The notes beneath the pieces are model-generated. The model made no database searches, was not told where the DNA came from, and saw only the letters and a program-made list of their open reading frames with translations. A program made the position numbers and the translations under genes. This document shows positions 836 through 37,275 of a DNA stretch of 64,000 bases, in pieces. Every line of letters begins with the position of its first letter. Position 1 is the first letter of the stretch. This DNA is from Phyllosticta citribraziliensis (Eukaryota). The stretch covers positions 1 to 64,000 of the forward strand of contig NW_027117346.1 in assembly GCF_038025025.1 (NCBI RefSeq). Reading direction: 5' to 3'.

Positions 836-956
836 AGTTCAGGACTCATTGGTAGTTAGCACCAGCTACTGCTCCCCCTAGCAGTTTCAGCAGTATATAG
901 ATAGCTCTCAGAGTAGCCTTAAATAGAGTCTTCAGTTCTCTCATCTTACTTCGTCA
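836..956. mobile_element. Probable remnant of a second RIP-mutated LTR (ends ...CTTCGTCA), or an extension of the first LTR
   Basis: TpA-rich non-coding stretch with TATATA/TAAATAG-like signals. It ends in CA exactly where the neighbouring RNase H reading frame stops. Confidence 0.45.
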
Positions 957-1568
957 GCCCTCTTTACGGGTCAATTCGTTGTCGAGGTTCCGAAAAATTG
1001 ATTCGTTTTGAGGACGGCGGCCAGTAGATGTCCTGAAGTTATTCTCCTAGTTTGCAGGACTTGTTAACGATCAGTCTTTTTCACGTCAAGCACCGAGCCT
1101 TACCTTCCATTCTGGAAGCCATTCAGTAAGTCCCTTCACAGCGTACTCCGAGTCTGTCGCGATGACAAGGGCGTTGAACTGGGCGTCTACCCAGCACTGA
1201 TCGGTTGGTGTCTCCGCCCTTATCTTGTAAATGCCCCAATGCATTCCTCCGTTGACTCCCAATAGCTCTGCTCGTTGGTTTGTCCTTCTCTCGTTCCCAC
1301 TGAACGAAGAGTCAAATTGGTCTGACCTGTGTGTACCTATGGCAACGCCCCATCCGGCTTTCGCTCCTTCGTTCCCATTGCTGAGACATGCACCGTCAGT
1401 GAAGACGACAGGAACTTCATGAGAAAAGTAACGCTCTGCGGGTGACTGAAGGAAAAACCGTTCGCATTCTTGACACAGCAGAAACATCTCGTCGTAACTC
1501 CAGTCGTATCTGTTGGAGAGCTTCAACGCTCGTTTGCGAATCCAGGTACCCCTTGGCATTTCAGACAT
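954..1568 (-). pseudogene. RNase HI-like protein, paralog 1, C-terminally truncated (exons 1568-1104, 1046-954)
   Basis: Motifs VFTDGACLSNG, RTNQRAEL and IATDSEYAVKGLTEWLPEWK. GT-AG intron 1103-1047. Exon 2 ENNFRTSTGRRPQNESIFRNLDNELTRKEG* stops before the final N..AD.LA helix present in paralogs 2 and 4. Confidence 0.8.
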
Positions 1569-28579: not shown

Positions 28580-29576
28580 GTTGGACGGTGGACGGTCGGC
28601 TTCGGCGTGAGGCGCGTGGGCGCGTACCGTACCTTAGGCAGGGCTGGAAACGGCAGAAACCCTTTGATTGGCTGATAAGGCGGTGAGATGTTGAGTCCAG
28701 TGATTCGTCAACTCCCCGTTCTCCACCCAAACCTCAACTCTCAAGGTACGGTCTACTTAGGCCATCAAGTCATCTGCCAAGCGCACTACGGTCGATGCTG
28801 CCTGCCGAGTCTCATCAGGAAGCTTCTTCAACTCCGGAGTGCTGTGATGTCCGCTTCCATGCCATGGACTCATCTGGAGCGCTTTGTCGGAAACAGAAGA
28901 ACGGCGCCGATGAATCTCGTCGCGTCGTTGACTTTGGGCATCGTAGGATCAATCTGATTCTCCCCACGCTTGCCTCCTCTACTCCAGGGTCACACTCTAT
29001 GTACTTTTGCGGTGATTGCGGGTCATCCGGCATCGAGCCGCCGCCTCCAACCGCGACGCGACAAGCCGTCTTCTCGAATTTTCCTGAAAGGACGCGTTCT
29101 GGGAAGACATTGGTGAGTGGAATGACCATTAGCTGCATTTCTGACGAGTTGAACTTGTCAACTTTGATGCCACTCCCTCGAAATTGGGAATCCGCTCTGT
29201 CACCATGGAGTGGCTTCGATAGCATCTCCTACTTCACGCCTGATGTGTGATGGATGCACTGCAGACGAAAGAACTCAAATCGTTTTCTGTGATACGAGTC
29301 GGTCGCATGGAGGTATACCCAGATGACATGAAAAAAAACTTTTGGCAGAGATGGTGGGAGACGGGTGGAAGGAAGTCGCGCGTGGCGGTGGGCAGGCAGC
29401 TGCCTGCTGCTGGCAGCATCGACACCTCTTCTTACTTTCAACCTCCCCTTCCCAACGTCAAGAGTCACCACCACACCGACCGATGAGAGCCGTGAGTTGA
29501 ATGAACCGTCCATTGCTTCCTTTGGTCGCTGACCCTCACAGTGATCCTCACGTCGCCTCTCCGACTCTACCGCACA

Positions 29577-30337
29577 ATGACGGCACCGGCCAAGGACCGC
29601 CGCCTCCAGCTGCCTCCAAACCTGGGAAAGTTGGACTACGACAAAATCATCCGCGAATGTTTTGACTGCGGACGTCTCTACTTCGACTATGGTGAAATTC
29701 TCTTTCAAAAACCCATGCTTTTCCATAACTTGGCGGTGGTCATCACCGATGGAGCATGCCTGCGCAATGGACAGAGTGCTTCCCGTGCTGGAATTGGCAT
29801 TGTAGCAGGCTCAGACCCCTCTCAGCAATTTTCGATTCCGTGGCACCGCATCGATTGCATTCCTGCGGGTCTTGAGAGGACCAGCCAGCGCGCAGAGATC
29901 TTTGCGGCAATGGAGGGCTTGCGCAAAGCCGTGGATGTCCATGCGCACCTTTCCTGGGCCACGTTGGAATGGTTACGTCCCAGCAAGCTTATTCTTGCGA
30001 CAGACTCCGAATATGTCGTCAACGGCTTGACAGAGTGGTTTCCGAACTGGAAGGTATGCAGGTTGCCTGGCTGTATGATTACCCTTACTAAACTCTCCCA
30101 AAACAGAAACATGGCAACAAGACCTCCAGAGGCGTTCGCTCAGTCAACTTTGACCTATTTGAACAACTTGAAGCGACAGTCATTGAACTTGAGAAGAATC
30201 ACCGCATGGAAATCTTCTTCTTGAACGTCCCCCACGAAGCAAAAGCTCGCGCAGACAGGCTTGCCGGGGATGCCGCCCGATTGGATGACGCGACTGTCGA
30301 AGCCAACACCGTCCGCCTTGCTCAGTTTCACATTTGA
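29577..30337 (+). CDS. RNase HI-like protein, paralog 2 (exons 29577-30053, 30107-30337)
   Basis: ITDGACLRNG, RTSQRAEI, LATDSEYVVNGLTEWFPNWK|KHGNKTSRG...FFLNVPHEAKARADRLA. All four D-E-D-D carboxylates are present. Confidence 0.9.
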
Positions 30338-31271: not shown

Positions 31272-31426
31272 AATCAGGTCACGTCATTGAAAAGCCTCAA
31301 CACCAAGCGACATCGCATTGGGTAAGGTACAGCTTCTCCTGTCAAAATCAGGTCACGCCATTGAAAAGACTCTACACCAAGCAAAGTCGCATTTGGCAAA
31401 GTGCAGCTTCCTCTGTCAGAATCAGG
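31272..31426 (+). repeat. Diverged 74-bp tandem duplication (two units plus the start of a third) upstream of RNase H paralog 3
   Basis: AATCAGG recurs at 31272, 31346 and 31420. The units share aatcaggtcacg.cattgaaaag.ctc.acaccaagc...tcgcatt.gg.aa.gt.cagctt. Confidence 0.9.
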
Positions 31427-31580
31427 AACCCCTTGCGAGGAAAGCAGTCGCTATTTAATTTTGGCGTGAACCCCACATGTGCTCCACGTCCCTTTCTGCT
31501 CCTCTCCGCTTTCTACGCTCACTCTCACTCTTACTTTTCCCCTCCAGGATCGATCGATCCACCAAAAACTTAACGTGGAC

Positions 31581-32343
31581 ATGGAGCTAGAGCCGCCCAG
31601 AGGTCGCCGCCTTCGGAGCTCCACACCGTTTAGTGCGGAGTACATACGGACTGACCTGGACTCCGGCCACTTCTTCGTCAAAATCTCTGGTCGTGAGGAC
31701 TGGGAGTACACGTTTGTATATCCCGTGATCTTCACCAATGGATCATGCCTCGCCAACGGCAGGAAAAACCCGCGTGTTGGCATCGGTATTGCAGCGGGCA
31801 CGCGCCCATATTCATATCAACAGGTCTCTGAGCCGCTCAGCAACATATCGCACATTCCCTACAAACGGAAGAGCCAGCGAGCAAAGCTCTTCGGGGCCAT
31901 CGAGGGTGTCTCGAGAGCCTTGGATCTGGTCGGCGGATGGCGTGATTCATTTACCGTTGGGGCCAGTGTGATCATTGCCACGGATTCGATGTATGTCGTC
32001 GATGGCATAACGGAATTGCTGCCCAAATGGAAGGTATAGTGCAATTGCCAAATATTTTATTCGTCCACTGCAAGAACTGACCAGACCTTTTCAACAGGCC
32101 AGGGGCTGGATGACTTCAAAAGGCCGTCGGCCAAAAAATCTCGACTTGTTCCAGGAACTCGAAAAGCGCGTCATCGACTGTGAAAAGAAACACGGCATAG
32201 ACGTCCTTTTCTTGTGGGTTCCCCACGACACAAACAGGCTTGCGTGCAGGCTTTCCAACTCTGCTGCCAAAAGGGATGCCCCTGGACACTTTGCCGGAGG
32301 TCGTTTTCGGGAGGACAAAGCGAAGGCCTTCTATGTTGGATAA
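31581..32343 (+). CDS. RNase HI-like protein, paralog 3, predicted catalytically inactive (exons 31581-32033, 32098-32343)
   Basis: FTNGSCLANG (D>N), SQRAKL (E>K), IATDSMY (D kept) and WVPHDTNRLACRLS (D>C). The ORF and intron are intact. Confidence 0.85.
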
Positions 32344-33052
32344 TCCGGTCTACCAAAGGGTGCAGTCAAGGAGACAATTCATTGAGGCCACTGCAGACGA
32401 AATTTAAAGCCTACGAAGTGCCTTTTTGCACTCCAGGCGATGTCCTCCTCGAAGACTTCCTGTACAGCTTTGCGGAAAAGAGTCTGCGTGGTATATACTC
32501 CATGGAGCAGCTGACTACTTTTTTGTGGGGGTTTCACACGTTGTAATTTGCTACATTGCAGCGGAGGAGAAACTTGTGGTCATTTTCAAACGAGGCATTC
32601 TTGACATGCCACATGGAGACCTCCGAAACCAATCAGAAGGTCCCCTTTGCCAAACAACAAATGATCAAGAACATTGTCAAAAAACGATGAGAACATTGGA
32701 ATACCTATTGCCGATTTCTCCTTGCTATGATCAGCTTGACCCACGACGATGAACAGGTACCTTGGCCGGCTTTGACATTTCCAACGCGGCATGGGGATGT
32801 ACGCAGAAAGAGAAGGCCCTCCGATTGTGGAGGTTGCGGTCCGTGTAGATCAACGGGAAGCAGCAGTAGAGCCGGCAACGCGAGTGCGACGAAGAAGTCA
32901 CAACACAAACACCTTCCGCGGTTTGGCGAGCGCCCTTATTTATCATCCTCCTCCTCTTCCTCCCTTCTGCTCGACACCTGTCCACACCACCGGTCACACT
33001 CTGACCCTTCATCTGAGCCCTCTTTTCTTCCACTCCCTTCACCGGAACCACC

Positions 33053-33856
33053 ATGTCGTGGAGGGCCATGTCGCGCGTACCGCTACCGCTGCCACCAGGC
33101 GCACCGCTGCCAGCAGGCTATTCAATCGCCAATCACATGGTCTGGCTCAATGGATACTGTCCATCACCCAGCTTGATTCAAGAGTGCATCTATTGCGGCC
33201 GATCCTTCCTGCAGTCTCCCCACGAGAATGACTTCTCCCACAAGTTGCCGCTCATCTTCACCGACGGTGCCTGCCTCAACAATGGATATGACGGCGCCCG
33301 AGCCGGATATGGTGTCGTAATCAGCAATGACGCCCAAGGCCGAAAGAACTTTGCATTCAGTGGCGACCAGGAGAGAACAAACCAAAAAGCAGAGCTGGCT
33401 GGCGTCAAGAAGGGATTGGAGCTGGCATTCCAGGCCGCTGGACAGCAGGGTCGTGCACACAGTTGCCCGACTCCTTCATACAAGAACTTCGTCATCGCGA
33501 CCGACTCGGAATATGCTGTCAAGGGAATCACTGAGTGGTTGCCGATGTGGAAGGTCAGTGACGGCTCACCCCTTGATTCCTAGGCCCGAGTTGCAGGCAA
33601 AGAGTTGGCTCGTTGACCCGATTTAAAACAGACCAACGGCTTCAGAGCTTCCAACGGTAGACGTCCAATCAATGAAGCAGAGTTCCGGGAAATCGACTAC
33701 ATCATGGAGCGTCACGAAGCAATGGGTCACAATGTAGCCCTATGGCATATTCCCCGCTCATTCAACGCCGACGCGGACCAGCTCGCCGGACAAGGTGCCA
33801 ACAGAGATCAAGGACCACGAAACCGCAATCATGGAGTCTGGCCTGCTTATGGATAG
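33053..33856 (+). CDS. RNase HI-like protein, paralog 4 (exons 33053-33553, 33632-33856)
   Basis: FTDGACLNNG, RTNQKAEL, IATDSEYAVKGITEWLPMWK|TNGFRASNGRRPINE...LWHIPRSFNADADQLA. All four carboxylates are present. Confidence 0.9.
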
Positions 33857-35404: not shown

Positions 35405-36160
35405 ATGCCACCCCGAAACCGCCCTCGTCCCCGTCCTCCAAGGGCACACAAAATGATTCTTCGCAGAACCGAGCGTGGCATCTTTGGCAAGTTGCCCATG
35501 GAACTTATGCTTGAAGTCTTGGGACACCTGCAGTACGATGCTGCGATTTTCCTCGCGGCGACAAATCATTATTACAGACGACTGGTCGATCCCTTGACTG
35601 TTGTTTCAGAAGAACGGAAGTTAGAGTTTCTCGCACGAGCAGAGTATTTCCAGCAGCACATGCGCATTCCTTATGGCTTTGCCGCTTGCTTCTGGTGCTA
35701 CCGGGTCAAGAAAGTGCGGCATTACTTCGAACAGATCAACCAACCTTCCGATTACCACAATGTTCCGTTCAGCTGCAGTGGACCGTGGCAGATCTGTTCT
35801 GATTGCCAACAGGTGCCGCAAGTCTTGTCTCACCCGAAGGCCTTCGCGAAAGTCGTTCAAGTGGGATCCGAGACTACATTTTTGAAGTGGAATTGTGAGA
35901 CCTGCGAGGGTAGTGACAGCCAGAATCAGGAACTCACTTGCGCTATAGTCCATGGAGGTTGCGCTCGCTGTGGGCACTGTATCATCCAGCACGACCATCC
36001 TTTGGCTACCAAGTGCCCTACGTGCGAGGAAGATATCGTTTCTAGCGAAACGCAATGGTCATGGGCCTGTCGATTTTCGTGGATCATGAAACAAAAGTTC
36101 TGCACGATTTCTCGGCAATCTCGAGCAGAATTCGTGCGGCGGATGGGCCGTAATGAATAG
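35405..36160 (+). CDS. F-box protein with Cys-rich (multiple CxxC) C-terminus, paralog A
   Basis: FGKLPMELMLEVLGHLQYDAAIFLAATNHYYRRLV is F-box-like. Followed by CFWC, CSDC, CETC, HGGCARCGHC and CPTC. Confidence 0.85.
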   Translation: MPPRNRPRPRPPRAHKMILRRTERGIFGKLPMELMLEVLGHLQYDAAIFLAATNHYYRRLVDPLTVVSEERKLEFLARAEYFQQHMRIPYGFAACFWCYRVKKVRHYFEQINQPSDYHNVPFSCSGPWQICSDCQQVPQVLSHPKAFAKVVQVGSETTFLKWNCETCEGSDSQNQELTCAIVHGGCARCGHCIIQHDHPLATKCPTCEEDIVSSETQWSWACRFSWIMKQKFCTISRQSRAEFVRRMGRNE

Positions 36161-36504
36161 CTCGTTGGCTTCTCAAAGAATATCAGCTCACACGAATTAC
36201 CGAGAATTGCGATTTCAGTCGTGTCTGCGGTGCTAGAAGAAACTAGCGAAAGGATCGTGGCGCCGTGAACCACGTAGCTTTTCTTCTCTGATCAACTGTT
36301 GTTCAGGCTCCTGAGTGGCCGCCGCCTTCCAGACGTTTCTACAATCACCAGTCACCAATCTTGCTCAGTCACTTTGCTGTTTGGTTTGCTCTGCTCGCAC
36401 TGAGGCAGAAGACCTAGCCTGCCTTCCTTAAATACCACCCAACCCACCCATCTCCCGGCGAAAAGTACGGCGCCGTTCAAGACACCTCTGCGATGACCGA
36501 CTTC

Positions 36505-37275
36505 ATGCCACCCCGAAAACCTCCGATGCCGTCCCCTCTTGCTCATTTTTTGAAACTCACCAGGACTATCCATCCTAGGGTGCCAACTGAGCGCGGTTTC
36601 TTCGGCAAACTACCCATGGAAATGATGCTCGCAATCTTTGAGCACTTGGAGTACGGCTCCGCGATTTTCCTTGCTGCGACGAACCACTACTTCAGGAGCC
36701 TGGTCGATCCCATAGCGGTCGTATCAGAAGAGCGTAAAGCGAAGTTCGTGTACTATTCAGAGGTGTTCAAGAGGCGCGAATTCGGCTATGCTTGCTTTGG
36801 CTGCTACCGACTCAGGCCAGAGCAGTGCTTCATGCCCTTCTTTACTCCCAAGCAACTCAAGAGCAATGCCAGCGACCGTGAGTGGCTGCCATGGCAATTC
36901 TGCGCGGACTGTGCAAAGGTGAACCCGATAACCATTCCCCATTCTCCCACGCGCGTGGCGAACAGTTCCAAGTTCCTTGAATCGATCGACGATGGATCCG
37001 CCGCATCGAGCGGAGCTGAGGCATCCGCAACGGGCGAAGAGTCAGACTTTGCAGTTTGGGACTGCGACAGCTGCTATAAAGAAGAAAATATCAACATGTA
37101 CGCGGGTGGCTATTATGTCTGGATTCATCACGGGGGCTGCCCAAAATGTAACCACTGTGTTCTTTGGGCTAGCGATGTGACAGGCGAGTTTCCGATGGCA
37201 GACAGCGACCGCTCTGACGACTGCCCTTCGTGCAAATGTCGTGCCCTTCCTTTCAGAAATCTAGGCATCAGATGA
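36505..37275 (+). CDS. F-box protein with Cys-rich C-terminus, paralog B (in-frame upstream ATG at 36493 also possible)
   Basis: FGKLPMEMMLAIFEHLEYGSAIFLAATNHYFRSLV, then CFGC, CADC, CDSC, HGGCPKCNHC and CPSC. Colinear with paralog A. Confidence 0.85.
   Translation: MPPRKPPMPSPLAHFLKLTRTIHPRVPTERGFFGKLPMEMMLAIFEHLEYGSAIFLAATNHYFRSLVDPIAVVSEERKAKFVYYSEVFKRREFGYACFGCYRLRPEQCFMPFFTPKQLKSNASDREWLPWQFCADCAKVNPITIPHSPTRVANSSKFLESIDDGSAASSGAEASATGEESDFAVWDCDSCYKEENINMYAGGYYVWIHHGGCPKCNHCVLWASDVTGEFPMADSDRSDDCPSCKCRALPFRNLGIR

Follow-up and report, generated by a model that had tools for sequence, protein, structure and literature searches.

Among the RNase H-like genes of the window, by which is meant the whole 64,000-nucleotide stretch of Phyllosticta citribraziliensis DNA analysed here, lying at the start of one contig (C9) of a 31.4-Mb fungal assembly, the third of four copies (P3) is very probably a pseudo-RNase H that has been maintained by selection; the full statement, according to which this maintained pseudoenzyme would also bind nucleic acid without cleaving it, is given somewhat less than an even chance of being right, its nucleic-acid-binding part being the weak one. 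The relevant features of the window are the following:

954 to 1568, reverse strand: copy 1 (P1, P0283), 185 aa, ending before the last catalytic Asp, beside AT-rich RIP-like DNA
29577 to 30337, forward strand: copy 2 (P2, P0004), D-E-D-D intact, in the sister clade of P3, with an intron at 30054-30106 and a 5'UTR intron near 29492-29541
31272 to 31419, forward strand: a 74-nt sequence duplicated in tandem (copies 82% alike) where the P3 promoter would lie, directly before position 31432, the first letter seen to be transcribed
31581 to 32033, forward strand: P3 exon 1, residues 1-151, with the degenerate Cys motif, N53, K102 and D135; PF00075 match of 31.6 bits
31653 to 31664, forward strand: DLDS, remnant of the CxxC motif; second Cys lost in all orthologs, first Cys in P3 only
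31737 to 31739, forward strand: N53, codon AAT, replacing the first catalytic Asp (human D145, E. coli D10); common to all orthologs
31884 to 31886, forward strand: K102, codon AAG, replacing the catalytic Glu (human E186); private to the P. citribraziliensis lineage
31983 to 31985, forward strand: D135, codon GAT, the sole carboxylate kept (human D210)
32034 to 32097, forward strand: P3 intron of 64 nt, GT..AG, at a position common to the other copies, skipped in the X1 contig
32098 to 32343, forward strand: P3 exon 2, residues 152-232 and stop, with C201, S204 and N205
32245 to 32247, forward strand: C201, codon TGC, replacing the last catalytic Asp (human D274, E. coli D134); common to all orthologs
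33053 to 33856, forward strand: copy 4 (P4), D-E-D-D intact, with an intron at 33554-33631

The two exons of P3 (31581-32033 and 32098-32343) join into a stop-free frame whose 232-aa product is, letter for letter, P0001, a P. citribraziliensis 'ribonuclease H-like domain-containing protein'; frame and GT..AG splice sites are indeed intact, as had been claimed in an earlier note made from the letters of the window. The predicted splice at 32034-32097 is present in a contig of run X1, which spans 31432-33498 and skips 64 nt with GT..AG ends exactly at the predicted intron, two P2 introns being skipped in the same contig set. Since these skips are exact, a spliced P3 RNA is indicated, on the support of one run of four, available as contigs only, from one study, and with a guessed RNA label for X1; run X3, whose RNA label is likewise a guess, has no cover on P3 and run X2 is patchy, so that neither was counted. 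The same X1 contig starts ahead of P3, crosses the intergenic DNA and reaches exon 1 of P4, which can be read as a long 3'UTR, as read-through or as merged transcripts. In run X6 two P3-like contigs are found over 31402-32477 of the window, one about 91% identical (over 31402-32267) and one about 80% identical, whose small indels within P3 sum to multiples of three (12 of 43 rows listed); they may correspond to two haplotypes, two paralogs or a mixed sample.

At the catalytic columns P3 carries N53-K102-D135-C201 in the place of the D-E-D-D of the family, and does not retain the set of carboxylates of an active enzyme. In the alignment with human RNase H1, N53 falls on D145, K102 on E186 and D135 on D210, C201 sits in the family column of D274, and S204 replaces a family Ala; the alignments thus bear out the claim of the earlier note that three of the four carboxylates are substituted and only the Asp of the TDS motif is kept. 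The same holds for the N-terminal motif, which reads DLDS in P3 against CQEC, CFDC and CIYC in copies 1, 2 and 4, the following His being replaced by F45. One detail of that comparison with the neighbours fell away, although the substitutions themselves are real: copy 1 cannot be a source for the last motif (AD.LA), because it stops before it, at 185 aa. Of the complete Cys motif of the family (CxxC...CC...CH), P3 has neither the CxxC nor the CC, and Phe for the His; the motif is also reduced in P1, P2 and P4, so that the descent of P3 from the Cys-motif family rests on the tree and on the shared intron, and it is altered in two D-E-D-D-intact P. capitalensis paralogs (P0018 and P0024).

The extent to which such losses occur in the family was gauged on the best 150 of 2925 matches, of which 146 were aligned (four longer than 500 aa were dropped) and 131 cover all four columns. 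In this set of best matches D-E-D-D is found in 108/131 members, and the other 23 are without at least one carboxylate, 17 of them with one of the first three changed and 6 with a change in the last only. Asn at the first site occurs only in P3 and its ortholog P0002 among the 131 aligned, and the N-x-D-C pattern is confined to the P3 clade among the matches listed. Judged from these sequences, the loss of catalytic residues in P3 is not a chance event.

The remainder of the domain is well preserved. The P3 protein matches PF00075 with 48.2 bits, against a curated cut-off of 25.8; the AlphaFold model has a pLDDT of 87 and a pTM of 0.85, and its best Foldseek match is human RNase H1 (E 5e-12, TM 0.79 by target), E. 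coli RNase H also being among the top matches. The likeness to the RNase H1/RNase HI domain (PF00075; PDB 2QK9/2QKK) consists in the profile match, the fold and the motif spacing, which aligns with the human enzyme together with the region of the basic protrusion. Unlike RNase H1, P3 keeps one of the four carboxylates (its orthologs two of four), has a degenerate Cys/His region at the N-terminus and a clade-specific tail at the C-terminus, and has no N-terminal hybrid-binding domain, since PF00075, and not PF01693, was the only match at E<=0.1. In databases this dead copy carries the plain name 'ribonuclease H'.

Orthologs, all of them predicted models, were found in P. citrichinensis (P0155), in P. 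citriasiana (P0002 and P0266) and in P. citricarpa/paracitricarpa (P0258, on 5 contigs); the core of P3 is identical to them at 97/190, 101/190 and 104/190 positions (51-55%), the last value being that for P. citricarpa. In a 29-sequence tree P3 and its orthologs form one clade (100/99), sister to the copy 2 clade (98/94). All of the orthologs have open frames and read N-E-D-C; all have Ser for the following Ala and lack the second Cys, while keeping the Glu and the first Cys (CPKS/CPKT), and that of P. citrichinensis also keeps the His after the Cys motif. By parsimony, D53N and D201C are older than the split between P. citribraziliensis, P. citrichinensis and the citricarpa/citriasiana group, and E102K and C25D arose later, on the P. 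citribraziliensis branch. The expectation that the substitutions be conserved among orthologs was accordingly borne out for D53N and D201C, shared in three further lineages, and not for E102K and the loss of the first Cys, which are private; the earlier view that carboxylates and CxxC were 'lost together' has to be abandoned for a stepwise order, since the first two changes are shared by the orthologs and E102K and C25D came later on the P3 branch.

PMC9073689 calls P. citrichinensis the closest relative of P. citribraziliensis; the P. citrichinensis sequence P0155 is 51% identical to P3 and groups with the citricarpa sequences (95/79, which is not strong). P0155 could belong to the P3 clade as a paralog, or the P3 branch may be a fast one; the lesions are clade-wide either way. 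The P. citricarpa model P0003, at first sight a P2/P3 chimera, was taken as a mis-joined gene model (its DNA was not seen), because other assemblies give separate P2 (P0260) and P3 (P0258) models. Word-based homolog searches with exon 1 and P0001 returned P0001 only (1/26 and 1/239 candidates), which reflects their limit of sensitivity, the orthologs having been found otherwise; among the five P. capitalensis paralogs retrieved no member of the P2/P3 clade was found, which is not proof of absence.

Whether P3 has been maintained or is decaying was judged at the protein level, comparing columns conserved (>=60%) or variable (<40%) among 81 family sequences picked by hand, with full-length intact ones favoured. 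Identity between P3 and its orthologs is 54/68 in conserved against 26/72 in variable columns for the first comparison, 53/68 against 32/72 for the second (p=4e-5) and 49/68 against 28/72 for the third, with p values from 2e-7 to 7e-5 over the three; the corresponding figures for the P2 pair are 44/66 and 18/68. In 1000 neutral simulations started from the present P3 coding sequence, which stands in for the ancestor, and run with substitutions only to 54.7% identity, the gap between conserved and variable columns was 0.00 +/- 0.085, with a maximum of 0.275, compared to an observed gap of 0.33-0.43; these sequences acquired a mean of 5 stops, and 3/1000 remained stop-free. Nor has P3 diverged faster than its sister: with respect to P. 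citricarpa 104/190 positions are identical in P3 against 88/189 in the D-E-D-D-intact P2, the tree paths being 1.29 and 1.30. The protein-level comparison and the simulations support purifying selection having acted on P3 after the loss of its catalytic residues; together with the shared D>N and D>C changes and the open frames, they uphold the suggestion of a maintained pseudo-enzyme, as opposed to recent decay.

The decay reading, in which P3 would serve no function and be in decay, whether slow or recent, within a birth-and-death family, is unlikely and can be regarded as largely refuted. Broken or degenerate copies are admittedly common: P1 is truncated, one member (C18a) of a second tandem pair on contig C18 reads D-D-D-A, and P. 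citriasiana has truncated orthologs of both P2 and C18a. Indeed, since impaired copies are frequent both in the family (23/131 among the best 150 of 2925 matches) and in this genome (C18a and P1), dying copies are part of the family background; moreover, the P3 lineage has suffered the further private losses E102K and C25D, and the ortholog sequences behind the comparison are predicted models. Against decay, however, three lineages that have diverged deeply carry the same two lesions in open frames; none of the 1000 simulations, in which so few sequences stayed free of stops even without indels, reached the observed excess of identity in conserved columns; and P3 is spliced and bears no RIP signature. 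On the latter ground RIP was dismissed as the origin of the lesions, the coding sequence having a TpA/ApT ratio of 0.46 and a GC3 of 0.63.

As to what a maintained P3 might do, the nature of the ancestral change is suggestive. D10 of the E. coli enzyme (human D145) ligates both metals and D134 is partly dispensable, according to PMC4032109 and PMC8900815; 10.1101/2023.07.18.549494 and PMC6027298 describe human D145N as a binding-competent, catalytically inactive probe, and dead RNase H1 as able to act dominant-negatively on R-loop turnover. Passages from PMC4182655 and PMC12134985 contain nothing further on the first Asp. Because the ancestral D53N is the very change that stops cleavage and spares binding, a non-cleaving binder is the lead idea, and from the inactivity of D145N we infer that P3 has lost cleavage. 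The computations show that P3 arose by tandem duplication from the copy 2 lineage; before the species split, Asn took the place of the metal-bridging Asp and Cys that of the metal-A Asp, and the frame, the intron, the RNase H fold, the family-conserved positions and splicing have been kept since. By RNase H chemistry, such a protein would be unable to bind the two catalytic metals and would not cleave, but it might still grip RNA:DNA hybrids or other duplex nucleic acid in the way D145N and D210N RNase H1 do, shielding or marking hybrids and competing with those paralogs in the cluster that do cleave; in P. citribraziliensis this grip would be strengthened by extra basic residues, including E102K, T97K, G202R and M210R.

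The evidence from the substrate-facing surface is mixed, the presumed contact residues being only in part retained. Among the positions aligned with human N151, W221, W225, T232, S233, N240 and R278, whose contact roles are presumed, N59, S158 and N165 (human N151, S233 and N240), together with R96, are kept in 4/4 orthologs, and position 157 (human T232) is Thr in the orthologs with Ser in one. W146 (human W221) is kept in 2/4, being Leu in P3 and P0155, and W150 (human W225) in 3/4, being Ser in P0155; position 205, corresponding to the basic R278, is Asn in 4/4, and the family Arg at position 194 is His or Gln. For comparison, neither Trp is left in the P. citricarpa P2, where part of the protrusion is missing as well. 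The net charge of the domain is +11 in P3, -2 to -4 in the three orthologs and -8 to +1 in the D-E-D-D-intact paralogs, so that a basic surface is not a conserved trait, the orthologs resembling the intact paralogs; charge gains on the P3 branch are not significant when polarised (7 vs 4, p=0.55), and reach 13 vs 2 (p=0.007) in an unpolarised, post hoc count.

Part of this evidence can be read differently. It is possible, if tentative, that the pseudoenzyme is maintained through protein contacts, as a scaffold or decoy whose RNase H fold would be offered to some partner or to an antagonist, for instance a protein of a transposon or mycovirus, in a conflict cluster that evolves fast. Invariant residues specific to the clade surround the dead site (N53, S55, F104, G105, L190, C201, S204 and N205) and continue into a C-terminal extension, encoded in exon 2 and conserved in the P3 clade only, in which D211, P213, G218, E223 and K227 are invariant in the clade and unconserved in the family; such residues, at the site and in the tail, would suit a protein-contact role equally well. 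The acidic character of the orthologs, the loss of some presumed substrate contacts and the fast evolution of all copies (45-60% identity between congeners) point the same way, yet a first-site exchange to Asn is the classic one for sparing binding, and a role in conflict is argued from rate and clustering only, its partner being hypothetical.

A more specific role, that of dedicated inhibitor or heterodimer partner of the neighbouring sister copy 2, is quite improbable. P3 adjoins copy 2 here, and the orthologs of the two are neighbours, to judge from consecutive accessions, in P. citricarpa, P. paracitricarpa and P. citriasiana, P2 preceding P3 in the fused model P0261; the two clades are sisters, and both genes are spliced in run X1. 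However, in two P. citriasiana assemblies (P0263 and P0264) the copy 2 ortholog is a protein of 155 aa, cut just after the third carboxylate, and the dead P3 ortholog is whole, which makes a dedicated inhibitor of copy 2, as the earlier note had proposed among other roles, unlikely; RNase H1 is moreover described as a monomer in PMC8266564. A prediction of the P2-P3 complex, run without an alignment, scored 0.00 and is evidence neither way.

It is very improbable that the site has been rebuilt around D135, C201, C56 and H194 for another chemistry or metal, and is altered without being dead. C201, N53, C56 and D135 are invariant in 4/4 orthologs, but no precedent was found, and the site has not been held constant, since Gln occupies position 194 in P0155, and P3 has Lys at position 102.

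Engineered dead RNase H1 (human D145N and D210N, S. pombe D129N) is a close parallel to the non-cleaving binder, D53N being the same Asp-to-Asn change at the D145 position. In contrast to these probes, P3 is natural, is conserved across species and carries a further lesion (the D274 equivalent changed to Cys); the hybrid-binding domain of the probes is absent from it, and its binding is putative. Dead RNase H folds also occur inside larger proteins, such as Prp8 and the non-slicing Argonautes; no report of a free-standing natural dead RNase H kept by selection in fungi was found in a search mostly without subscription journals. The nearest relatives of P3, with which it shares consensus motifs, are found in the fungal RNase H-like family with the CxxC...CC...CH motif, present in Ascomycota and Basidiomycota; most of its members are D-E-D-D (108/131 in the set of best matches), as opposed to the N-x-D-C of the P3 clade. 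No paper on this family was found in a search that left aside most subscription journals and bioRxiv supplements, and the term RNase H is absent from five supplement files of PMC9073689.

Dead paralogs that regulate live ones are known (PMC5201418 and PMC3663545); the trypanosome prozyme of AdoMetDC and the dead DHS are likewise dead duplicates beside an intact copy, although these form obligate complexes with the active enzyme, whereas the nearest sister of P3 is dispensable in one species. It may tentatively be proposed that P3 is a natural, cross-species-conserved non-cleaving binder of RNA:DNA hybrids, an evolved counterpart of dRNase H1, which tunes or shields the substrates of a fast-evolving cluster of fungal RNase H paralogs in genome conflict, and that the pairing of a live with a dead copy has perhaps arisen again in the C18 pair. 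Laboratories routinely bind R-loops with dead RNase H1, of which P3 would possibly be a free-standing natural version; if P3 does bind hybrids, fungi would control R-loops or transposon intermediates not through cleavage alone but also through protection. In any event, a six-copy, fast-evolving RNase H-like family, with relatives across Dikarya and no functional study found, is exposed in one small fungal genome.

In this genome PF00075 matches nine loci, namely a canonical RNase H1 (C9:298 kb), distant single genes on C4 and C11, and six close paralogs, which comprise P1 to P4 and the tandem pair on C18 and all share the same intron position. Copies 2 and 4, which flank P3, would be active to judge from their intact D-E-D-D. 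Copy 1 ends where RIP-like DNA of 28% GC starts (TpA/ApT 1.81 in 1-950) and looks truncated by a repeat. The second tandem pair (C18:125600-127650) consists of C18a (P0089), with D-D-D-A, beside the D-E-D-D-intact C18b; the C18a ortholog in P. paracitricarpa/citricarpa has a different lesion, the first Asp being changed to Ala, the P. citriasiana models are truncated, and C18a too has an excess of identity in conserved columns (48/67 vs 30/69).

The end of the C18 contig is not AT-rich, and its joining to the start of C9 is based on accession order only. In a second assembly a C18-type model, P1, P2 and P3 are found on a single 2.1-Mb contig, no more than 32 accessions apart, and in P. capitalensis a stretch of about 60 accessions takes in five paralogs; accession order suggests that the six close paralogs may occupy one region and form a genus-wide RNase H-like cluster. 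Two tandem Cys-rich genes are also found in the window, at 35405-37275, the second of which is weakly F-box-like, below the cut-off (E 0.01), and the first not at all.
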